Source of the DNA: Alphaproteobacteria bacterium
Lineage (GTDB): Bacteria > Pseudomonadota > Alphaproteobacteria > UBA11222
Reading direction: 5' to 3'
DNA length: 41,188 nucleotides
Assembly: GCA_040081735.1 (NCBI GenBank)
Contig: JBEBFX010000001.1
Coordinates: 1-41,188 of the forward strand
The notes below the pieces were generated by a model, which was not told the DNA's origin, made no database searches, and worked only from the letters and a program-made list of their open reading frames with translations. The position numbers were made by a program, and so were the translations under genes. Position 1 is the first letter of the stretch; each line of letters starts with the position of its first letter. Below, piece by piece: positions 7,147 to 37,086 of this stretch.

Positions 7147-8238
7147 CTATCCTTCGCGGTGCGCCAAAATGCTCGACGTGGCCAGCATAAATATCAGCAC
7201 GGGTCCCCCAACAGCCAGCACCGGCGGCATAACGCCTGATTCTCCTAATGACCGGAAGACCCCGCTGGCCAGCAGATAACCAAATCCCGCCGCAAGCGCC
7301 ACCGCCATATCCCGGGCCCGCGAGGGATACCGCGAAGTGCCAAGCGCCAGCGGCGCTGCCGCCAGCAGCATGATCATCGGCACAAACGGGGCGGCCAGCG
7401 CTTCATAAAAATTAGTCAGATAATAACCAGGGCTGTTGCCGCCTGCCCATATTTTTGCCTCCGGCAAGCCCGGCTGATGCAGACGGACACGGGCATTAAG
7501 AATTGTCGCCGAAAGAATGTCTACCGGCTCGGGGCCATCGGCCAGCGTTAAGGCGCCAGCCTGCGCCTTCGACGCTCCCTCGCGATTGATGGACCGGGCC
7601 GTCACCCCGTCAAACTGCCAGACGCCATCAATCAGGCGGCCCGTGCGGGCCGTTGCATGGCTTACGATCCGGCCGTCTGGCCCGCGCCGGATAAGGGTCA
7701 CATGCTGCATTCGCCGGCCTTCGTCCTCTGCGCGCTCGAACCCCATGATCATCGGTCCGGAACTGATCCAGTACGCGGCCTGCCCCGGCATGCCCGCCGC
7801 GCCGGTGTCAAGGTCCGCCTGTGCTGCCGGTTCTGGTTCGCGCAGCATTTCGTGCACCAGAATTTCCGTATAGGGCGCTGCAACGAAACGCACCCCAAAA
7901 TACACCAGACCGATGACCAGGGTAACCGGGGCCAGCCGCCCCACAATCCAGTAGATCGTCATACCCGAGCTGCGCATGGCGACAATCTCGTTATGCACGG
8001 CAAGATTTCCAAACGTAATCAGCGCGCCGATCAAAGTGGCGATTGGAACCACACTGGCGGCAATCGATGGCATGATCAGGGCGGCATAACTGCCCAGATC
8101 ACCCAGACGGCCGTCCCTCGCAATCACCGCATTCCCGTTGTCAAGCAGGTCCAGCAGTTCGGCCAGCGCGCCCAGCGCCAGCAGCGCCACCCCAACGCTC
8201 AGCGCAAAAATTCGCGTCAGATACAAGGCAAATGTCAT
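7147..8238 (-). CDS. lptG: LPS export ABC transporter permease LptG
   Basis: 363-aa YjgP/YjgQ-type permease: an N-terminal TM bundle, a periplasmic beta-rich insert and C-terminal TMs. It is the second gene of the pair and overlaps lptF by 4 nt. Confidence 0.75.
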   Translation of the reverse strand: MTFALYLTRIFALSVGVALLALGALAELLDLLDNGNAVIARDGRLGDLGSYAALIMPSIAASVVPIATLIGALITFGNLAVHNEIVAMRSSGMTIYWIVGRLAPVTLVIGLVYFGVRFVAAPYTEILVHEMLREPEPAAQADLDTGAAGMPGQAAYWISSGPMIMGFERAEDEGRRMQHVTLIRRGPDGRIVSHATARTGRLIDGVWQFDGVTARSINREGASKAQAGALTLADGPEPVDILSATILNARVRLHQPGLPEAKIWAGGNSPGYYLTNFYEALAAPFVPMIMLLAAAPLALGTSRYPSRARDMAVALAAGFGYLLASGVFRSLGESGVMPPVLAVGGPVLIFMLATSSILAHREG

Positions 8239-9455
8239 GCCGGATTTTTGCTTTCGGGACGTAATGCGCCCGCCAGCCCGCTGACAAGCCCCTCAATCCC
8301 GGCGAAAATGGAATCGAAGGGATTGCCGCCCGGCGAGGCGTCGGTGCGATGAAACGTCAGAATACAAAATCCGGCGAACAGCGCAAACGGCAGCCATATC
8401 GCCATGAGCGGAGAAAACATCCCGCGCTCTACCAGGCTTCCCCCCAGCTGTATCATATGATGATAAAGCACAAGGATCAGACCCCCCGCCGCAATACCCG
8501 TGGCGCGGCTCGCGCGCTGGCTGGCCATGCCCATGGCCATGGCCAGTAATGGCAACAGGGGCAGTGACGCCGCGCGCGCCAGACGGGTATGAAATTCAGC
8601 CGATAATCCGGCGTGCGCCGCGCCCGGGGGTGTTTCGTCCATAAGCCGCCATATTTCGTTGAGCGTCAACTCGCGCCCATCCTTGCCGCGGGCGCGGAAC
8701 GGGGCCGCGTCAAAGGCAAAATCGCGGCCAAAGGTGACGCTGGTAAAACTAACCGTCAGGGTCTCGGCATTTTTCCTGATGGTGGTGCGCGCGCCTTCCC
8801 GCAGCACCAGTTGCAGCCGCGTATGGCTGCCGTCAACCAGCAGCGCGCCGCTTTGCGCCGTCGTCAGTATTTCCGTGCCGTCCCGCGCTTCGCGGATGAA
8901 TATTCCGGCCAGGTGGCGCCCCGTCGCATCGACTTCGTCCGCATAAATCGTCAGCCCGTCACCCAGTTTGGCGAATACCCGTTCACTCAGCGTCGCATTC
9001 CAGGCCGTCGTCGTGACCACATGAATGATTTCGCGATACAGATAACGGCTATAGGGCTGAATATACCCAAACAGCGCGATACTGATAAAGGCAAACCCCA
9101 CCCCGATCATGACCAGCGGGCGGACGATGCGATACAAGGAGAGCCCGGCGCCGCTTATGGTGACGAATTCATTGTTGGAATCGAATCTGGATATCACCAC
9201 AAACAGGCTGATAAAAAATGTCGCAGGCAGCGCCAGCCCCAGATAATGCGGCAGCAGATTCATCGTCAGCTGGAACACCAGCTCCAGCGGGCCGCCATGA
9301 CTGGTTAACAGTTCCAGCAGCCGCAAGGTGCGTTCCAGCAACAGGGCCGCCAGCGTAATCATCAGCGAAAACAACAATGGCCGGGAGGTTTCGCGCACAA
9401 GATAAAAAGTGATCAGGCCGGTTGCCGCACCCTTTCCGGTCACGCGGCGCGCCAC
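8235..9455 (-). CDS. lptF: LPS export ABC transporter permease LptF
   Basis: 406-aa YjgP/YjgQ-type permease (ITFYLVRETSRPLLFSL...). The start is ambiguous: GTG at 9455, or GTG at 9443, which forms a GTGA overlap with the HIT gene stop. Confidence 0.75.
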   Translation of the reverse strand: MARRVTGKGAATGLITFYLVRETSRPLLFSLMITLAALLLERTLRLLELLTSHGGPLELVFQLTMNLLPHYLGLALPATFFISLFVVISRFDSNNEFVTISGAGLSLYRIVRPLVMIGVGFAFISIALFGYIQPYSRYLYREIIHVVTTTAWNATLSERVFAKLGDGLTIYADEVDATGRHLAGIFIREARDGTEILTTAQSGALLVDGSHTRLQLVLREGARTTIRKNAETLTVSFTSVTFGRDFAFDAAPFRARGKDGRELTLNEIWRLMDETPPGAAHAGLSAEFHTRLARAASLPLLPLLAMAMGMASQRASRATGIAAGGLILVLYHHMIQLGGSLVERGMFSPLMAIWLPFALFAGFCILTFHRTDASPGGNPFDSIFAGIEGLVSGLAGALRPESKNPA

Positions 9456-11443: not shown

Positions 11444-11746
11444 TTACTGCATGCGATTACCAATCGTTTTCAGCGCCAGTTCAAGAAATGGCCGCACGCC
11501 CCGTGGCCCCCGGATGGCTATATCCCTATCTGTGCTATTATATATGTCGTTCAATTCGGCGTCGGTGGAATTCCCCCCAAGAAGCGTGGCGAGAAAATCC
11601 CGCAAAACGCCATATTCCTTTTTTTGAACAAATCCCAACGCCCCATTGATCAGGTCCTGCGGCTCGGGGCCATAATCATCGAATGCATCCTGATGAAGGC
11701 CCTGACAAAATTTGTAAAATACTTCCGGGATGTTCATCTGGATCAC
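11444..11746 (-). CDS. Putative CdiI-type immunity protein
   Basis: 100-aa acidic protein. The FYKFCQGLHQDAFDDYG ... LRDFLATLLGGNSTDAELNDIY pattern resembles small contact-dependent-inhibition immunity proteins (from memory). Its GTG start overlaps the toxin TGA (GTGA at 11743-11746), and an alternative ATG lies at 11737. G+C is lower than in the cluster. Confidence 0.5.
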   Translation of the reverse strand: MIQMNIPEVFYKFCQGLHQDAFDDYGPEPQDLINGALGFVQKKEYGVLRDFLATLLGGNSTDAELNDIYNSTDRDIAIRGPRGVRPFLELALKTIGNRMQ

Positions 11747-12381
11747 CGTCCAATTCTTGGGTGATAGTTTCTTGGAAATGCGTTGCGGATACGATAGCCG
11801 GATACCATATGGGTGTCGCGAACAATAAATACGCCAACCTGATAGGTCTTACGTATTCTGATAAGGTCTATGTCTGGCGGGTCCACATAGGCTTCCTTGC
11901 CCGTAGGAAAACCAAACCTGTGTATCAAAAACTCCCCGGCGGATTGGCCGCTTGCCACGCGCGCCACCGCGTCAGGATTCATAACAATCGTGCGTTTGAT
12001 TAAATCCCGTGCATCTTCCTCGGACGCGAACGATCCGTTCCTGTCAATTCCTAAGCTGATAAAGTAGCTGCGATATTGTGATCGCTGGATACGCGCAATC
12101 AGCTCGGCTTCGCTCTTGCCAACGTGCCTGTTTATAATATGCTGGTTAAGATATCTGTCTTCGCCGGGGCGGTCATTATCCGCAACGGGGATAACTCCAT
12201 TATCCCCGTCCGTCCATTGCCCGCCATCCGGATGGCCCGCAGGCACGCGCGGCTGGCTGGGATTGAAGGCGGTTTCAAAAGCCAGTTGCAGCCGCAGCAT
12301 GGCAATATCCATGCGCAGCCCGGCATGCTCCCAGCGCAACCGCGACAGCGCCAGCTCTCTGTCTGAAATGCCCCTAGACAT
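11743..12381 (-). CDS. Putative polymorphic-toxin-type nuclease (RNase A-like CdiA-CT-type domain candidate) with a short helical N-terminus
   Basis: 212-aa ORF. It has an N-terminal helix, a PRVPAGHPDGGQWT linker, and then YLNQHIINRHVGKSEAELIARI. That H-x3-RHVGKS motif recalls RNase A-like toxin domains, from memory. The start ATG overlaps the SleB-type gene stop by 8 nt (ATGTCTAG). Confidence 0.5.
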   Translation of the reverse strand: MSRGISDRELALSRLRWEHAGLRMDIAMLRLQLAFETAFNPSQPRVPAGHPDGGQWTDGDNGVIPVADNDRPGEDRYLNQHIINRHVGKSEAELIARIQRSQYRSYFISLGIDRNGSFASEEDARDLIKRTIVMNPDAVARVASGQSAGEFLIHRFGFPTGKEAYVDPPDIDLIRIRKTYQVGVFIVRDTHMVSGYRIRNAFPRNYHPRIGR

Positions 12382-12826
12382 AAAACATATGCGCGCCGAT
12401 CAGCGCCGTGGGTTTCATGCTTTTCGCCCATACCGGTTCAATGTCATGATGATGATAATGCGTCGCCCCGGCGGCCGGGTCTTTGATCAACCCGCCCCAA
12501 ACCTGGCAGCCAATCGCGAAGGCGCGGCAATAGGCCGCATTCTCAAACCCGATCCGCATCAGTTTTGCCGCATTCGGATCGCCCGGGTTCCAGGCGGAAA
12601 ATTGCCGCGGCGCCCGGCACGCCCCCGCCAGCGTGCCGTCGCCGAATAGCGGATGCGCCCGCTTCTGGCGGGCAACAAACACCTGCGCCGCCGCCACCCG
12701 GTTGCGCATTACCCAGGCCACCGCCGCCTGGCCTTCTTCGCTTTCACCGCGCGCCTCGCCCCAGATGCTGCGCGCGAGCGTCTCCATATCAAACAGGCTG
12801 GCGTTGTTTATGATATGTTCTTTCAT
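12374..12826 (-). CDS. Cell-wall hydrolase, SleB/Hydrolase_2 family
   Basis: 150-aa ORF. LARSIWGEARGESEEGQAAVAWVMRNRV...ATHYH is the hallmark of SleB-type amidase/lytic enzymes. It overlaps the DUF2793 gene by 4 nt. Confidence 0.8.
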   Translation of the reverse strand: MKEHIINNASLFDMETLARSIWGEARGESEEGQAAVAWVMRNRVAAAQVFVARQKRAHPLFGDGTLAGACRAPRQFSAWNPGDPNAAKLMRIGFENAAYCRAFAIGCQVWGGLIKDPAAGATHYHHHDIEPVWAKSMKPTALIGAHMFYV

Positions 12827-13542
12827 GCTGAAGCCGCCAGGGTCAGATAATGAATGGCCACGCGGATCACGCCGCCGCTGAAATTACCCCCCGTTGCGCT
12901 GAACCGGATCGGCGTATTGGCGTAAAACGCTGTCGGCCCGGTGACGCCGATATTGCTGCCGCCGGCAGCTATTCCCAGTGTCCCGCCATATTTGGAAAGA
13001 TCGCCGACAATACCGCAATTATAGGATGTTGCCCCGGTAATGGCCGTCTGTACACGCACGGTTACCCCAAACACGATGGCCCGGTCGGGGATCTGAATTG
13101 CCGTGTCCGATGTGGCGGCCAGCGCCAGTGTGTGGCTTTCCTCCAGTATCCGGAACAGGGTGCGCGCCCCCAGCGGGGCTTTCGCCACATCGCTTTCGCG
13201 CGCCTTCAGGGTGTGCGTCCATGCGCCGCCGTCATAAAACACCGGCGCCGCTTCATCCGCGACCCACGCCTGCCAGCCATTGCGCGGTGTACGGAATATC
13301 CACGCCCCCGCCTGCCAGGCGGCAATCTTGCCTGCCTGCCCGGCCCATGCGCCGGTTGGGCTGCCCGCCACCAGATAACGATCCCCTTCAACGGGGCTAG
13401 CCGGCGGCGCGGCCAGATCGCGGTCCAGAACGCTAAGCTGCACCAGCGTATCCAGTCCGCTCAGCGCCTCGTTCACCGTCACATGCTTTTGCGATTGCGC
13501 CGCCTCCAGATAGGCCAGCGCCAGATTTGCCGAATTAGCCAT
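12823..13542 (-). CDS. DUF2793-family phage/GTA structural protein (fibre/spike-like)
   Basis: 239-aa ORF. The N-terminus LALAYLEAAQSQKHVTVNEALSGLDTLVQLSVLDRDLAAPP...GDRYLV is typical of DUF2793 proteins found after g15 in alphaproteobacterial GTA-like clusters. Confidence 0.7.
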   Translation of the reverse strand: MANSANLALAYLEAAQSQKHVTVNEALSGLDTLVQLSVLDRDLAAPPASPVEGDRYLVAGSPTGAWAGQAGKIAAWQAGAWIFRTPRNGWQAWVADEAAPVFYDGGAWTHTLKARESDVAKAPLGARTLFRILEESHTLALAATSDTAIQIPDRAIVFGVTVRVQTAITGATSYNCGIVGDLSKYGGTLGIAAGGSNIGVTGPTAFYANTPIRFSATGGNFSGGVIRVAIHYLTLAASA

Positions 13543-24530: not shown

Positions 24531-24911
24531 TCAGCGTTCAATGGCGGGCGTAAACGGCGCCAGGGTTTTTATCGCATTAATCAGCTCCCGGATGGTTTCA
24601 CCCCTCTGGACGCTCAGGGCTTCATTCATTTCGGCCTGGGTCATCTGCCCGGCAAAAGCCTTGGCGCCCTCGGCCTCGTACAGGAACTCAATGCCGTCCG
24701 GGGTTTTCCCGGAAAGTTTGACACGCTCGTTTTCCTTTCCCCCGCACAGTTTCGCATCGATCTGTCCGGTCTGCGCGTCATAGGCAAGCGACGCCTGATT
24801 TATTCCCGCACAGGACGGCGGGCTGGCGCGATACACCGTGCCGCAGGCTGCAAGTGAAACGGCGCCCCCCGCCGCAAAGGCCAATGCCAAAGCAGAATAT
24901 TTCATATTCAT
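24531..24911 (-). CDS. Small lipoprotein
   Basis: 126-aa ORF. The signal peptide carries a lipobox (MNMKYSALALAFAAGGAVSLAAC), and the mature part has three further Cys residues. It lies inside the structural operon. Confidence 0.5.
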   Translation of the reverse strand: MNMKYSALALAFAAGGAVSLAACGTVYRASPPSCAGINQASLAYDAQTGQIDAKLCGGKENERVKLSGKTPDGIEFLYEAEGAKAFAGQMTQAEMNEALSVQRGETIRELINAIKTLAPFTPAIER

Positions 24912-26728: not shown

Positions 26729-27313
26729 CTAAATATCAGCTGACATTGCTCTGGCCGCCTGCCGGATGGCGAAGGCAAGTTCACGTAAGTCCTGATCCGA
26801 ATCCTGCGGGAAACTTTCCAAATCGCGCAGGCTATCCGCTTGTTTGACGCCAGCCACCCGCGCCGCGTCATTCATGGGAAAGGTCACGATCGAGATTTCC
26901 CACAAATCTATTTCAAGCAGTGTCCGCACGCCGGTTCGCTCATCCATCCGCGCCCGCACGGTTCTGAAGCCGATGGACAATCCATCAATCGCGCCTGCGC
27001 GCAACAGCGACAGCACCTCGCGGCCCCGCGCCACATCGCCCAACAGACGCCCGCGCACCAACAGGCCGCGCGCATCTTCTGCGATATGCTCCCACACCCC
27101 TATCGGCTCATTCGCATCATGCTGCCACAGCATGCGCACCTGATCCGCCGGCCGCGCCGCCAGCGAGTTTTTGAACGCCCCCGGCGCAACAACATCGCCG
27201 CCAGAATCCGCATTGCCAAAAACACTGGCGTAGCCTTCGATAACGCCATCCTCACCAACGGCGCGCACCTCCGCCCCGGCCAGCTTGACCTCCAGTTGAT
27301 CCTCTACGTGCAT
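26729..27313 (-). CDS. HK97-family prohead protease (GTA g4-like)
   Basis: IEGYASVFGNADSGGDVVAPGAFKNSL is the S78 protease motif. The start is chosen at ATG 27313, with GGGAG 5 nt upstream. The longer track ORF (to 27379) runs through the upstream terminator. Confidence 0.85.
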   Translation of the reverse strand: MHVEDQLEVKLAGAEVRAVGEDGVIEGYASVFGNADSGGDVVAPGAFKNSLAARPADQVRMLWQHDANEPIGVWEHIAEDARGLLVRGRLLGDVARGREVLSLLRAGAIDGLSIGFRTVRARMDERTGVRTLLEIDLWEISIVTFPMNDAARVAGVKQADSLRDLESFPQDSDQDLRELAFAIRQAARAMSADI

Positions 27314-27328
27314 GATAACTCCCGGCAT

Positions 27329-27354
27329 AAAAAAAGCGCCCCGGCTGGAGCGCT
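27329..27354 (-). terminator. Intrinsic terminator closing the inserted two-gene cassette
   Basis: The minus strand reads AGCGCUCC-agcc-GGGGCGCU followed by U7 (plus-strand A-run 27329-27335). It lies directly upstream of the protease RBS. Confidence 0.65.
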
Positions 27355-27435
27355 GTAAATTTTCTTCCCATTCCCTCATTGGGAAAGGGGATGCTTATTC
27401 CGCTTGGCTATATGGCCACCACGATGTTCACTACT

Positions 27436-27987
27436 TCACTTCCTTTGCCGTACTTTTTTTGCAGGCACTTTCTTTGCCTCGACCGGCGTTTCACCGGACT
27501 TGTTCCCCCGCGTAACCAGTATGGAAACGATACTGGCGGCGCCAGCCCCAACCAGCGACATACCCACAGCTGTCGCACCTATGTAAGCGCAATACGCCGC
27601 TCCTGCTATAAAGCCAAAGCTGACTAAGACGCCACTTAGCTGCCCAAAAACTTCACCGAAGGCGCTCCACCTTAAGACCCTGCTCTCAAGGCCTTGCCTG
27701 TGAACCTGCTCTTTTTCCGCCATACTAATGATGCGATTTGCAGAGCCAGAAAGAATTTCTTCATATCCCGCCAGGTGTGCGGGAGGTGGGATTGGTCCCT
27801 GGAACGACTCATACCGTTCCACAGTACGCGTAACAGTCATAACAATCTTATTCTTTGTGTCTTTATTGAGAGACGTTCCCCTAAGTAGAGGCTCAAGTTC
27901 TTCTTCGAGCGCCTCTTTTAGGCCATCCTCATCCGCGTGCTCATTTACTGAGACGGATCGTCCATCGGCGACGGTAGGGTCGCTCAT
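27436..27987 (-). CDS. DUF2335-family membrane protein
   Basis: 183-aa ORF. FQGPIPPPAHLAGYEEILSGSANRIISMAEKEQVHRQ matches the DUF2335 signature. Two C-terminal TM helices are followed by a strongly basic tail (KKVPAKKVRQRK). G+C is lower than in the cluster. Confidence 0.6.
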   Translation of the reverse strand: MSDPTVADGRSVSVNEHADEDGLKEALEEELEPLLRGTSLNKDTKNKIVMTVTRTVERYESFQGPIPPPAHLAGYEEILSGSANRIISMAEKEQVHRQGLESRVLRWSAFGEVFGQLSGVLVSFGFIAGAAYCAYIGATAVGMSLVGAGAASIVSILVTRGNKSGETPVEAKKVPAKKVRQRK

Positions 27988-28265
27988 TTCTTGAATGTAT
28001 GATCTTCAATTGCTGACCAAAGATCCCCGCCAACCTTCGCCCAATCTCCGGCCAGACCTTTACCCTTATAGGCTCGGGCGGATACCGGGGGCATTATTAC
28101 GTTGGCTTGTGCGCTCATCCCCTTCAAGAAACCCCTCTTCAGGCCAGACGTAATTGCGTCAACAACAATACGCCCATCCGAAGCGGTTCTTTTCGCAGTC
28201 TCGCGTTCAGACCGTCTAATACCGTCCTTTGTCAGTGTTTTCATAAAGATTCTCATATAATGCAA
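27984..28265 (-). CDS. Hypothetical small basic protein (first gene of the cassette)
   Basis: 93-aa ORF with a 4-nt overlap with the DUF2335 gene. Alternative ATGs lie at 28256 and 28244. I recognise no family. Confidence 0.35.
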   Translation of the reverse strand: MHYMRIFMKTLTKDGIRRSERETAKRTASDGRIVVDAITSGLKRGFLKGMSAQANVIMPPVSARAYKGKGLAGDWAKVGGDLWSAIEDHTFKK

Positions 28266-28548
28266 TGGGCGATATCGCTAGTTCACTTAATGAATATATA
28301 CCCATAAAGCCTACACTGCAAGACTCGGTTGCTTTTTTACGTCCCAATTTCTATCTAATTGTCAAGTATTTTTTTAAGAAGCTGTAAATTTCGTGGGTCA
28401 TTTGCTTTAAATTGTAGTGTTTCCTAACAAATTGTGGCGGCTCCTCCACCTTTTACAATTCATTTTTCACCACGGGTTTCAGGTATATAATTTCCAACTG
28501 TAAGACTTTACGTCATAAAGTTTCTTTAATTGATTATTTCGAGACACC
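28266..28548 (-). promoter_or_regulatory. AT-rich non-coding region, probably the promoter/operator of the cassette
   Basis: 283 bp with no ORF of 60 aa or more, and far more AT-rich than anything nearby. AATTGT/ACAATT occurs three times (about 28410, 28431, 28455). A TACAAT -10 candidate lies on the minus strand (28416-28411). Confidence 0.4.
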
Positions 28549-28815
28549 CTATCCCCCCTGCATCCGCTCCAGTGTCGCTTCGATGCGTGCCAGCGCCTCC
28601 AGCGTATGACGCAGCTTTTCCTCCTGGCGCACCAGCCGCTCCGACATTTCGGTCTGGAGGGTGGATGCGCTTTCCAGCCGCCGCACCCGCTCGCCCATGC
28701 CGCCCGCCCATATCAGCGCCGTGCCGATCTGCACGCCCAGCAGCACAAACAGCATGACCGGAATTTTGCGGTCGATCCCCCAGCCGGGTTTTTCCGCCCC
28801 GTCAATGGCGCTCAT
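28549..28815 (-). CDS. Small single-pass membrane protein with a coiled-coil tail (g3.5 position)
   Basis: The start is chosen at ATG 28815, with GGGAGG 6 nt upstream. The protein reads MSAIDGAEKPGWGIDRKIPVMLFVLLGVQIGTALIWAGG (TM), followed by a heptad-like RRLES...LEALARIEATLERMQ. Confidence 0.5.
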   Translation of the reverse strand: MSAIDGAEKPGWGIDRKIPVMLFVLLGVQIGTALIWAGGMGERVRRLESASTLQTEMSERLVRQEEKLRHTLEALARIEATLERMQGG

Positions 28816-28834
28816 CCGTAAACCTCCCATTCGT

Positions 28835-30061
28835 TTATGTTTTGTTCTTTAAATCAGCAAGCCGGTCACCCTCTGCGACCGGCGCATATCCCGTAGCGGC
28901 GCGCTTTTCATTGATCGTCAGAAAATCCGCCGCGCGCACCCGCTCCCATAATGAATCCCGGTCCGCCGCCAGCGCCTCCACCTGATCCGCGTCATACCAG
29001 AGCCGCAGCCCCGGCCCAAAGCGCGGCCCCAGCCACTGGGTCATCGCTGCGCACGCCTTGCCCGCCAGCGGCAAAATGGTCTGCCGGTGAAACGCAAGAT
29101 TGGCTTCCCGGTAATTGGCGTAGGTATTGTCGCCCTGTATGCCCAGCAGCATCGGCGGCACCCCGAACGCCAGCGCGATCTCGCGCGCCGCCACATGTTT
29201 GGACTGAATGAAATCCATATCCTTCGGATTGAACGACATTTCCTTCCAGTCCAGCCCGCCTTCCAGCAGCAGCGGGCGTCCTGCATTGGCCGGTCCCTGA
29301 TAATTGTCCGACAATTCCTGCTTGAGACGCGACAGCTGATCCTGGCTTAAATTTGCACTGCCATCCGCGCCATGATAAATCAGCGCGCCCGAGGGCCGCG
29401 CGCCATTATCCAGCAGCGCCTTGTTCCATCCCGCCGCGGCGTTATGAAGATCAATGCCCAGCGCCGCCGCCTCGATGGGCGAGAATCCGTAATGATCGTT
29501 ACTCGGGTGAAACAGACGCATATGCAGAATGGGCGCGCGCCCGCGCGCGGCGTCCATCTCGAAGCGCACACTTTTACCGCCTGTGGAATATTCATAGGCG
29601 GCCGGCCATCCACGCGCGCCCGGTATCACTTTCATCCGGTCCGGACGCAGCACATATAATTCGCGCACCGCCCCGCGCAGATCGGCGGCCTCAATATAGG
29701 CGTTGCCTGCAATCTGCAAAAACCCGAACCAGGCTTCTTTCATCTCGATGCCGCTCTGCAACGGGTTTGGCCGCGCCAGCAGGCTCAACAGCGGATGCGT
29801 GTCCAGCTCCCGCTCGCGCCCGCCCGTGTTTTCATACAATATCCACGGCACGGCGGCGGCGGTTTCACTGATCATCCGTACACAACGATAAGCGATGGCG
29901 TTGCGCGCAAAACCCTCCTGCGCCAGATCGCCATAGTGGCGCGGCGTCCATACCGGCGTCCCCTGGCCATGAAGGGCGATCAGGGAACCGGCGGCGCTTT
30001 GCTTGGCCGCCATTGGCGGGCGAAAACCAAACCGGCGCAGAATGCTGAATGTGTCTCTCAC
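28835..30061 (-). CDS. HK97-family portal protein (GTA g3-like)
   Basis: 408-aa ORF with the typical pattern YRCVRMISETAAAVPW...GNAYIEA...FSPIEAA...IALAFGVPPMLLG. Confidence 0.9.
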   Translation of the reverse strand: MRDTFSILRRFGFRPPMAAKQSAAGSLIALHGQGTPVWTPRHYGDLAQEGFARNAIAYRCVRMISETAAAVPWILYENTGGRERELDTHPLLSLLARPNPLQSGIEMKEAWFGFLQIAGNAYIEAADLRGAVRELYVLRPDRMKVIPGARGWPAAYEYSTGGKSVRFEMDAARGRAPILHMRLFHPSNDHYGFSPIEAAALGIDLHNAAAGWNKALLDNGARPSGALIYHGADGSANLSQDQLSRLKQELSDNYQGPANAGRPLLLEGGLDWKEMSFNPKDMDFIQSKHVAAREIALAFGVPPMLLGIQGDNTYANYREANLAFHRQTILPLAGKACAAMTQWLGPRFGPGLRLWYDADQVEALAADRDSLWERVRAADFLTINEKRAATGYAPVAEGDRLADLKNKT

Positions 30062-32281: not shown

Positions 32282-33133
32282 TTACGTATTATGTAAATTA
32301 TTTTCATCTGAAACGTGCACGGTTCGCGGCGAGTGCACCCCGGGCCTGTTTTTTGGCGCGTCCTTCCGGGCAATGCCATAATACGCTGCCAGCCGGTCCA
32401 GAGCGATCCCCAGAACCACCTTGCCCGCCCGCACGGGCCAGCCCAGATGCCGCTCGGCCGCCGCCAGTCCATTCAAATAACAGCATACCTGCAACAATAT
32501 GCCGCCCAGATCGGGGCCGACGGCGTCAATCGCGGCCCATAGCCGGTCCTTGGCGGCGATCATCGTATCGTTCATGCTGGCCTGATCGCTGCCCGCCCCC
32601 CGCCCTGCGCGATTGATTGGCATGCCCCATGACGCGGTTACTCTCGGGGCCAGGTTGGCAAGGGTAAAGTCTCGCCGCAGGCGTTCCCCGGCGGCAAACT
32701 GTTCAATAGTAATCAATGGTTTGCCATGTTTATCTTTATGGCTGACCAGCCATCCCAACGGGCTTTCCGCATGATTGACGCGCACCACAACTGCTTCACC
32801 TTTTTCTGTGCGCTGTTCCTTAAGGTCAAGTATCTGATGCTGGCTGCGATAGGGGGAATCTGGCGCCTGCCTGCGCCGCAGACGCGCGCGCCCCAGCCGG
32901 GAAATACGCCACTCACCAGGTGTCTTGTCCGATGCCAGAATCAGTTCCTCAGTCATCAGCTGGCGAACGGCCTTCTCGCCCGCAACCAGCACAGGCCTGG
33001 CAAATCTGTTCCTGGGGACAAAAACCCCCATCCCGCCCCCGTCCGTCAAGCGGCCAACTGCCTGAAATTCGCCAAGGTGAAACAGAACAGCCTCGACTTC
33101 AGACGTTTTCTCTTTTTTATCGGTGATTTTCAT
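32282..33133 (-). CDS. DUF6456-type protein, candidate GafZ/GafA-C-terminal-like GTA activator
   Basis: 283-aa ORF. ESPLGWLVSHKDKHGKPLITIEQFAAGERLRRDFTLANLAPRVTASW ... DRLWAAIDAVGPDLGGILLQVCCYLNGLAAAERHLGWPVRAGKVVLGIALDRLAAYYGI matches my memory of the alphaproteobacterial DUF6456 pattern. A GAGGT RBS is present. Confidence 0.55.
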   Translation of the reverse strand: MKITDKKEKTSEVEAVLFHLGEFQAVGRLTDGGGMGVFVPRNRFARPVLVAGEKAVRQLMTEELILASDKTPGEWRISRLGRARLRRRQAPDSPYRSQHQILDLKEQRTEKGEAVVVRVNHAESPLGWLVSHKDKHGKPLITIEQFAAGERLRRDFTLANLAPRVTASWGMPINRAGRGAGSDQASMNDTMIAAKDRLWAAIDAVGPDLGGILLQVCCYLNGLAAAERHLGWPVRAGKVVLGIALDRLAAYYGIARKDAPKNRPGVHSPRTVHVSDENNLHNT

Positions 33134-33278
33134 AACATACCTCTATAAGATGCAGGTTTATATTCCTTTTATAGGACTTATTGCTGAATTACAAGTTAAA
33201 AATATTTCCTATAACATTCGTTTAATTTTGTTATATTCTCGTTTATCGTAAATTTATTGATTCGGAACATTCTGGTTC
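33134..33278. promoter_or_regulatory. AT-rich divergent control region with repeated CTATAA half-sites
   Basis: CTATAA occurs at 33143-33148 and 33209-33214, and inverted (TTATAG) at 33169-33174. Two of these are embedded in TCCTATAA. The region lies between the divergent activator-like and repressor-like genes. Confidence 0.5.
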
Positions 33279-33857
33279 ATGCATAATAAAATCCGTCATT
33301 ACCGTAAACAGCGTGGCTTGACGCTGGCCTCGCTCGGGGCCGCCATCGGCCTGACGCCGCAATCCGTATCGCGCATTGAAACTGACAAAATGCGGCTGTC
33401 CACCGTGTGGATGGAACGCATCGGGGCTGCGCTGAATGTCAGCCCGGTGGATCTGATTGAGGCCGCCCTCCCCGGCGGCGGGGCCGAATTGATCGGCGAG
33501 ATCGGCGCAAATGGCGCCTGCGCCCCGCTTGATCCGCAACCCTTCCGGATGGCGCTTCCCGGACCGGACACCAAGGTCATCCGGCTGGCGCGCGCCTGCG
33601 GGCCGTATCGCGCCGGGGAATATCTGGTGTGCACCCGGCTTCCGGAACCCCGGCATGAAACAGCGCTAGGGCTTGATTGTCTTGTTGAATTAACCGGCGG
33701 CGCCCGGAACTTATGCCGCGTCGTGACACAATCCGCCAAACCGGGAAAAGTCAAAACCTTCACATTGGCGGGGATCGATTCGGGAAGCTGGGTGTTGCGC
33801 AAACAGCGGATCGCCTGGATCGCCCCGGTGCGCATGCGCCTGCAATTCACCGCCTGA
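33279..33857 (+). CDS. XRE-family HTH regulator with a cI/LexA-like C-terminal domain
   Basis: 192-aa ORF. The HTH is IRHYRKQRGLTLASLGAAIGLTPQSVSRIETDKMRLSTVWMERIGAALNVSPVDL. The C-terminal beta-rich domain is laid out like peptidase S24, but I cannot find the GxSM...K catalytic pattern. Confidence 0.7.
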   Translation: MHNKIRHYRKQRGLTLASLGAAIGLTPQSVSRIETDKMRLSTVWMERIGAALNVSPVDLIEAALPGGGAELIGEIGANGACAPLDPQPFRMALPGPDTKVIRLARACGPYRAGEYLVCTRLPEPRHETALGLDCLVELTGGARNLCRVVTQSAKPGKVKTFTLAGIDSGSWVLRKQRIAWIAPVRMRLQFTA

Positions 33858-36931: not shown

Positions 36932-37086
36932 TAAAATATCGTAAAAAAGGCCCTCGCATATTGCTTTCAGGCTTTAAGAAATAATTAAGCAACAATGTTT
37001 CGGCTTGATGGCAGTCAGGTTACAGCGCGGTTAACAGGCGCATCGGCCCCTCCAGGCCCCGCAAATTCACGGCTGCATAAACCTTC

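Follow-up and report, generated by a model that had tools for sequence, protein, structure and literature searches.

Insert in the GTA gene cluster

The stretch of DNA analyzed here, positions 1 to 41,188 of contig JBEBFX010000001.1 from an Alphaproteobacteria bacterium (assembly GCA_040081735.1), is referred to in its whole length as the window. It carries on its minus strand a head–tail gene cluster of the RcGTA type, that is, of a gene transfer agent (GTA), as indicated by domain matches to GTA_TIM, Rcc01698_C, DUF2460, and BR0599. In this study, we describe an insert of 1.2 kb in this cluster, which lies between a g3.5-like gene, ending at 28549, and the prohead protease gene and is composed of an AT-rich spacer, a small open reading frame (ORF) for a protein named p86, a gene for a DUF2335 protein, and a hairpin followed by a run of seven T residues (T7). 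The features of the insert and of its two borders are as follows.

28830–28549, minus strand: g3.5-like single-transmembrane (TM) protein of 93 aa, part of the GTA backbone and left border of the cargo slot (G+C content at third codon positions, GC3, 0.79)
28548–28245, minus strand: AT-rich spacer (G+C content 0.35)
28244–27984, minus strand: p86, a small basic soluble protein of 86 aa, partner of DUF2335 (isoelectric point 10.2)
27987–27436, minus strand: predicted inner-membrane DUF2335 protein of 183 aa (PF10097, phrog_3996)
27354–27329, minus strand: predicted intrinsic terminator with an 8-bp stem (six G-C pairs), a 4-nt loop, and T7, 15 nt before the protease start (hairpin 27354–27335, T run 27335–27329)
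27313–26729, minus strand: prohead protease (Peptidase_S78, Pfam 1.4e-38), part of the GTA backbone and right border of the slot

The original prediction, made from the sequence alone, was that 1.2 kb of DNA is interposed between the portal and TM-protein genes and the protease gene. This was confirmed, and it is unusual, as the portal-to-protease distance was mostly less than 700 bp (range, 36–3,502 bp) in 73 clusters, which are those with both portal and protease matched by tblastn queries among 80 related clusters identified by a portal-based scan with one genome per species. The two genes were also found to be lower in G+C content than the structural genes, as had been proposed, with GC3 values of 0.48 (small ORF) and 0.51 (DUF2335 gene) versus 0.63–0.79 in the structural genes. 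The small protein, originally assigned as a basic protein of 93 aa, is indeed basic, whereas its length was revised to 86 aa, the ORF most likely starting at the ATG at 28244. This ATG and an upstream TGAGA box are kept in the four lineages that carry the two genes, and gene callers give 78–86 aa for the relatives. The stop codon of p86 overlaps the start codon of the DUF2335 gene (ATGA). Across the four lineages, the ratio of nonsynonymous to synonymous substitution rates was 0.19–0.26 for p86 and 0.16–0.35 for DUF2335, indicating that both genes are functional coding sequences under purifying selection.

DUF2335 protein and its partner family

The downstream gene, which had been described as that of an overlapping 183-aa membrane protein of the DUF2335 type, was substantiated as such by a match to PF10097 of 56.7 bits, compared with a gathering cut-off of 25 (E = 2.2e-15, residues 67–108), and by a match to phrog_3996 with an E value of 4.4e-29 (residues 43–167 against profile positions 19–142 of 152). 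PHROGs lists phrog_3996 under its moron category, and the feature is a real one that is not attributable to chance, namely, a moron of the known DUF2335/phrog_3996 family. According to its sequence and hydropathy, the protein has an acidic N-terminus, a cytoplasmic helix region with the pattern GP(I/L)PxP...Y...HR, a TM hairpin at approximately 110–161, and a basic C-terminal tail. The AlphaFold2 (AF2) model, with a predicted local distance difference test score (pLDDT) of 71, is all-helical, with helices at 82–136 and 139–161, the long helix running into the TM hairpin. Close homologues were rare, with 8 matches in a collection of 5.8 billion proteins (7 without the window's own) at 54–87% identity, the weakest being partial, and all those with retrievable context were located in the same GTA slot. 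A lipase toxin domain of type VI and type IV secretion systems has been labelled "DUF2335" (phospholipase/Tle1-like; 10.1101/2023.07.16.549128, PMC6267618, PMC13600407). Such an identity was rejected, because it does not fit the small helical membrane family PF10097, and the label looks like a mistake, probably for the number of the Tle1 family.

A tblastn search of phage and plasmid records with the DUF2335 protein gave 31 records. An ORF of 65–160 aa was present directly 5' of, or overlapping, the DUF2335 gene in all of the 16 phage and plasmid loci inspected, and the same arrangement was found in five of five further independent loci, in which the top profile match was the ORF just 5' of DUF2335, so that the partner was present in all of the 21 unrelated loci, which are from phages, plasmids, and chromosomes. 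The partner ORFs share the pattern G.hG...P...Y and a C-terminal motif, [DS][WFM]xx[VIT]Gx[DH][LMFI]xx[AV], which was found at the C-terminus of p86 in the form GDWAKVGGDLWSAIED. Furthermore, a profile built from the 16 foreign partner ORFs detected exactly the four small ORFs of the GTA lineages among 14,093 six-frame ORFs, with E values of 5e-8 to 1.5e-4 (1.4e-5 for p86 of the window), and the next match, from outside the family, had an E value of 0.74. The remote-homology search that had been suggested for the small protein thus placed it in the partner family of DUF2335. The AF2 model of p86 has a pLDDT of 47 and is of low confidence or disordered except for the motif helix at 68–84.

In family scans, p86 was without a match in Pfam, NCBIfam, and PADLOC, and the NCBIfam scan gave none for the DUF2335 and g3.5-like proteins either; phrog_26284 showed weak matches to three members of the partner family, the E value for p86 being 0.18. 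When a p86 profile was searched against 1.84 billion representative proteins, only six matches were obtained, indicating that a narrow profile does not suffice for a partner family of such divergence. Pairs of the p86 and DUF2335 type were found across Firmicutes, Spirochaetes, Bacteroidota, and Proteobacteria. Judging from sequence and gene arrangement, the p86 family is a conserved, previously undescribed, and obligate partner of DUF2335.

The positions of the module in other genomes are mostly the classic cargo positions of temperate phages. It lies after the lysin gene, next to the integrase gene or the prophage end, in IME-SA4 and Javan433, beside the integrase gene in MD8, and after the gene of a Q-type antiterminator in Rahnella. 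In another locus (L119, 3814–4465; loci and clusters are designated here by L numbers), it is directly downstream of, and co-directional with, the gene of a CI-like S24 repressor. It was also found in the tail operon of Klebsiella phage RAH1 between the major tail and tape-measure genes (L102, 2703–3342), within the baseplate operon of an Escherichia coli prophage (L120, 3778–4573), and beside AAA_21+RloB and HIRAN genes (L114).

Cargo slot in related GTA clusters

The closest relatives of the cluster, which have portal identities of 73–90% and are all from uncultured Alphaproteobacteria, all carry extra DNA at the junction of the g3.5-like and protease genes, and its content differs among them. 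The slot was found to hold an acyl-CoA dehydrogenase (ACAD) gene, either alone or in combination with the A and B genes of PDC-M38, with two small ORFs, or with p86 and DUF2335; in a further variant, it holds a pair of small ORFs that match no family. The p86–DUF2335 cassette was carried by only four lineages among the close relatives, and the window was the only locus seen with the pair and no ACAD gene. Two comparisons show how closely related the carriers and noncarriers are: the portals of L081, with the cassette, and L006, without it, are 99% identical, and those of L003, with the cassette, and L001, without it, are 96% identical. The original prediction had proposed to look for the presence or absence of the cassette at this position in related clusters, and the outcome, in which it is not universally conserved there, is in line with the accessory, moron-type insert that it had put forward. 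In more distant clusters, the slot holds a CdiA-CT RNase A-like toxin or a HATPase_c pair. Thus, as read from these sequences, the junction between the g3.5-like and protease genes is a recurrent hot spot for cargo.

The cluster L081 gave an indication of how the cassette has spread. It has 1,025 bp with 84% nucleotide identity to the window, extending from p86 through DUF2335 and the terminator to approximately codon 30 of the protease gene, within a backbone that resembles that of L006. At its chimeric junction (L081 7733–8920), the cassette, the terminator, and the first ~30 protease codons are followed, by in-frame fusion at an ATCGAGG microhomology, by a duplicated 3' end of the g3.5-like gene and then by ACAD, so that L081 carries duplicated fragments of the 3' part of the g3.5-like gene and of the terminator and 5' part of the protease gene. 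This structure indicates that recombination between GTA clusters transferred the cassette and that the donor had the gene order of the window. A mere loss of ACAD from the window was considered and is an unneeded assumption, as L081 shows that a donor with the order of cassette, terminator, and protease existed. It is highly probable that the insert is an accessory mobile module.

The other contents of the slot were as follows. A complete ACAD gene, with three ACAD Pfam domains and a native-like GC3, is present in most of the close relatives (L001 7575–8717, L002 9475–10614, L003 8602–9744, and L086 8694–9833) and absent from the window. The slot of L002 also holds, at 7557–9387, the PADLOC candidate defence pair PDC-M38, in which A is an AbiL-like ATPase of the AAA_15/21 type (5e-85) and B is a DUF3226 protein (3e-56), with a GC3 of 0.45–0.50. 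A literature search yielded no report of morons or of ACAD genes in GTA clusters.

Terminator before the protease gene

The hairpin with T7 ranked first among the terminator-like sites of the 20-kb cluster. A terminator had been predicted here as the end of the cassette; its presence was supported, whereas its assignment to the cassette was not. The stem, GCGC(T/G)CC...GGGGCGC, followed by T7 and then by ATG.C.GGAG....ATG, precedes the protease gene in all close relatives irrespective of their cargo and is also present in the duplicate copy of L081; over nine loci, the stem shows hardly any change, in contrast to the loop, which varies freely. Because the same stem precedes the protease gene under every cargo variant of the lineage, the terminator appears to belong to the slot, and its assignment to the p86–DUF2335 cassette alone was rejected. 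It nevertheless travelled with the cassette into L081.

Among the clusters with a portal–protease gap of at least 1 kb, 13 of 27 have a terminator within the 160 nt that precede the protease gene, compared with none of the 46 compact clusters (Fisher P = 2e-7). As terminators occur only in cargo-bearing clusters, they appear to be a functional closure of the cargo. The terminator-like hairpins of the clusters with gaps of at least 1 kb were of several distinct sequences, in different lineages.

The protease gene most likely starts at the ATG at 27313, with the Shine-Dalgarno sequence GGGAG at 27323–27319 upstream, and the start block, TTTTTTTATG.C.GGAG....ATG, is kept in the relatives. Two further features are of concern here.

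27389–27367, minus strand: C-rich/G-rich hairpin 1, in the conserved backbone leader of the protease gene (minimum free energy fold)
33133–32282: DUF6456 gene, of the type of the GafA C-terminal domain, just upstream of the cluster

Hairpins analogous to hairpin 1, with CCC... and GGG... arms, were found at the same place in L002, L003, L004, L006, and L086. As there is no space for a promoter between the terminator and the protease gene, GTA late transcription must read through the terminator. In Caulobacter, GafZ lets RNA polymerase bypass terminators inside the GTA cluster, and the C-terminal domain of GafA is a homologue of GafZ (PMC11150451). By analogy, we infer that the DUF6456 gene upstream of the cluster is a candidate for the antiterminator. 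It is an evenly balanced possibility that the terminator acts as an insulator that is bypassed by antitermination.

AT-rich leader of the cassette

The spacer ahead of p86 is one of two regions with a G+C content of less than 0.42 in the 41-kb window. The original prediction of a strongly AT-rich noncoding stretch with three AATTGT/ACAATT motifs was correct as to its AT-richness, whereas the number of motifs in the spacer is four (P = 2e-4 versus shuffles). An alignment of the spacer among the four cassette-bearing lineages divided it into two parts, within which the following elements were identified.

28548–28400, minus strand: window-specific AT-rich part, missing in the other cassette-bearing relatives
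28399–28245, minus strand: conserved candidate regulatory part 5' of the small ORF
28388–28374, minus strand: TTTA-N7-TTAA box
28366–28357, minus strand: CTTGACAATT, invariant in the four lineages
28353–28348, minus strand: TAGAAA box, T(A/G)GAA(T/A) in the alignment
28322–28317 and 28299–28294, minus strand: candidate promoter, CTTGCA and ATATAT with N17 spacing
28256–28252, minus strand: Shine-Dalgarno-like TGAGA, 8–12 nt 5' of the ATG of the small ORF

The window-specific part contains the AATTGT/ACAATT copies at 28410, 28430, and 28455 and a weak terminator-like hairpin at 28450–28436. Blocks of the conserved part are invariant or nearly so among the four lineages, for which the synonymous divergence (dS) of the coding sequences is 0.9–1.3. 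In L081, a weak sigma-70 match (9 of 12 positions), ATGAGA-16-TAGAAT, uses the T(A/G)GAA(T/A) box. Judging from this conserved leader, it is plausible, and somewhat more likely than not, that the cassette has a promoter of its own. An Rfam scan of 27200–28900 gave a single sub-threshold match (ncS54, 20 bits against a cut-off of 43).

A sequence resembling a CtrA box, TTAA-N7-TTAA, was observed just 5' of CTTGACAATT. It is perfect in L003 (~7545–7560) and L086 (~7640–7655) and has one mismatch in the window (28388–28374) and in L081, and the only perfect TTAA-N7-TTAA elsewhere in the window is at 36974. A CtrA box upstream of the cassette is only a lead at present.

Other genes of the cluster and its surroundings

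The cluster was recognized as being of the RcGTA type from its genes alone, as it contains the genes for terminase, portal, S78 protease, HK97 capsid, DUF2460, BR0599 hub, NlpC/P60, and GTA_TIM/Rcc01698 g15 in canonical order. Its head genes other than those at the borders of the insert are as follows.

31418–30081, minus strand: terL
30061–28835, minus strand: portal (PF04860)
26623–25382, minus strand: HK97-type capsid

The genes 3' of the capsid gene are those for the connector, the tail tube, DUF2460, the BR0599 hub, NlpC/P60, and a GTA_TIM/Rcc01698 protein of 1,317 aa. The g3.5-like protein has a TM segment at approximately residues 21–46 (Kyte-Doolittle hydropathy), and its conservation is 62–77% in the eight closest relatives and 46% in L009 and L011.

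An XRE regulator gene is also present just upstream of the cluster, divergent from the DUF6456 gene. The stretch between these two genes, 32971–33414, with a G+C content down to 0.28–0.36, is the sole other strongly AT-rich stretch of the window and presumably represents a GTA regulatory region. At the distal end of the cluster (11743–13542, minus strand), three genes follow g15, encoding a DUF2793 protein, a Hydrolase_2 cell-wall hydrolase (12826–12374), and a protein of 212 aa that carries a CdiA-CT RNase A-like toxin domain (12381–11743), and this toxin domain recurs in the portal–protease slot of L033. An ORF for a lipoprotein-like protein of 126 aa lies between a 123-aa post-capsid gene and the gene of a Laminin_G_3 protein (24531–24911, minus strand). 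It is present in L001, L003, and L006 but not in L086, and the position may be a second variable slot.

Possible function of the p86–DUF2335 pair

With regard to function, we tentatively suggest exclusion or defence, a proposal that falls somewhat short of an even chance. It is made because the module occupies cargo positions, because it occurs in contexts such as just downstream of a repressor gene, and because defence and toxin cargo is present in the same GTA slot. In the mechanism proposed, p86, as a small and mostly disordered cytoplasmic protein, would be translationally coupled to the DUF2335 inner-membrane protein, and a promoter of the module's own, within the conserved AT-rich leader, would drive its transcription when the GTA is not induced. 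The terminator would stop the transcription of the cassette before the protease and capsid genes, and GTA late transcription would cross it by antitermination of the GafA/GafZ type. The product could then exclude superinfecting phages or bring about abortive infection by acting at the inner membrane, with p86 regulating it or serving as a sensor by binding to the conserved cytoplasmic helix region of DUF2335. Overall, the interpretation that we slightly favor is that of a horizontally exchanged, moron-type module of p86 and DUF2335, which is carried in a GTA cargo slot and acts in a membrane conflict role.

Several points weigh against this interpretation. The argument for defence is one of genomic position alone, that is, guilt by association, and the literature gives no experimental function for any DUF2335 protein. 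A Foldseek search with the AF2 model of the DUF2335 protein gave no match at E ≤ 0.001 in PDB or BFVD, and PADLOC-DB 2.0 gave no match at E ≤ 0.1 for p86 or DUF2335, nor any for the g3.5-like protein. As for the promoter, a consensus scan of the window gave no strict sigma-70 match on the coding strand, and, as the cassette is co-stranded with the GTA operon and is preceded by no more than a weak hairpin, it may be possible that it is expressed solely within the late operon. In addition, antitermination by the DUF6456 protein is an extrapolation from Caulobacter.

Among the alternatives, a toxin–antitoxin or addiction system, in which p86 would be a labile antitoxin and DUF2335 a membrane toxin that together stabilize the carrier DNA, has in its favor the order of a small gene followed by a larger one with an ATGA overlap, which is that of type II toxin–antitoxin operons, the constant co-occurrence of the two genes, and their mobile and patchy distribution. 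However, no fold of a DNA-binding protein or antitoxin is recognizable in p86, which is also without a match in Pfam and PADLOC, the effector would be a membrane protein with a large cytoplasmic domain, unlike known toxins of such systems, and the positions of the module are those of lysogenic-conversion cargo and not plasmid-stability loci. We therefore consider this explanation unlikely.

A role in lysis, which the original prediction had named as an alternative on the basis of a holin-like architecture, appears to be quite unlikely. DUF2335 would be a holin-like or membrane-permeabilizing factor, co-transcribed with the GTA late operon and aiding particle release, with p86 as its regulator or antiholin. 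The two TM helices and basic C-terminal tail of the DUF2335 protein would suit such a role, as would the absence of any recognized holin in the window, which nevertheless has the cell-wall hydrolase at the distal end of the cluster. The pair might also contribute to killing or to the release of particles when GTAs are produced, as the cassette and the GTA operon are co-oriented and no strong terminator lies ahead of the cassette, and there is a precedent in Caulobacter, where a co-opted immune system, LypABC, drives GTA lysis (PMC13236601). However, holins do not typically have a cytoplasmic part as long as the approximately 110 residues ahead of the TM hairpin, and Javan433, IME-SA4, and BUCT711 have the module together with separately annotated holins of their own. 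Moreover, most of the sister GTA clusters are without the module, the composition of the cassette is foreign, and no endolysin gene adjoins it, the nearest hydrolase gene being 15 kb away. That the pair is a structural or assembly component of the GTA head, extending the function of g3.5, is highly improbable in spite of its co-oriented position between the portal/g3.5 genes and the protease gene, as it is missing from clusters with 96–99% identical portals and capsids, lies outside the head modules in unrelated phages, and is of foreign composition.

Returning to the interpretation that we slightly favor, a broader and more doubtful possibility is that the pair is an undescribed and widespread membrane conflict system and that the GTA clusters of this lineage keep a terminator-insulated "safe harbour," where the pair, PDC-M38, toxins, and ACAD would be swapped by recombination, possibly via GTA transfer, with the downstream structural genes depending on antitermination of the GafA type.

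Implications and comparison with known systems

What has been newly obtained beyond the sequence of the window alone is the obligate partner family, the GTA cargo hot spot, and the closure by a terminator, which implies antitermination. In the usual description, GTA clusters are compact units that are inherited vertically and carry no cargo. The present locus and its relatives show phage-style cassettes at one particular hot spot and an exchange of such cassettes from cluster to cluster, and the mid-operon terminator of the cargo-bearing clusters makes GafA/GafZ antitermination testable outside Caulobacter. Furthermore, DUF2335 gains a defined genetic unit with an obligate, motif-bearing partner, which should help as a starting point for exploring the function of a family that is present in thousands of prophages of enterobacteria, pseudomonads, staphylococci, and streptococci.

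Morons are units of "more DNA" of the HK97/lambda type, an example being HK97 gp15, a moron for superinfection exclusion. The insert of the window is like phage morons in that it lies between genes that are adjacent in relatives, deviates in composition, is followed by a terminator, is within a late structural operon, and has a membrane product. It is unlike them in that its host is a domesticated GTA, the terminator is common to all slot variants, the promoter is only a candidate, and there are two genes, with an obligate small partner. The prophage exclusion genes rexAB and sieB of lambda and those of the sieA type of P22 are expressed in lysogeny. The present module resembles these in having two-component or membrane-anchored products at cargo or immunity positions, and its location in L119 downstream of the gene of a CI-like repressor is comparable to that of rexAB with cI. 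However, p86 and DUF2335 have no sequence or structural similarity to them.

The terGTA of Caulobacter (PMC11150451) is comparable in being an intrinsic terminator inside a GTA operon, and the window likewise has a gene of a DUF6456 regulator upstream of its cluster. There, the terminator is composed of 150-bp repeats after the first gene, whereas the window has a simple hairpin with T7 before the protease gene, the occurrence of which tracks cargo, and its bypass is a putative one. Finally, the DUF2335 protein of the window is like the temperate-phage proteins of PF10097 and PHROG 3996 in having the GPLPxP...Y...HR region followed by the TM hairpin and is distinguished from the other members in belonging to a small sub-lineage that is found only in this GTA slot.

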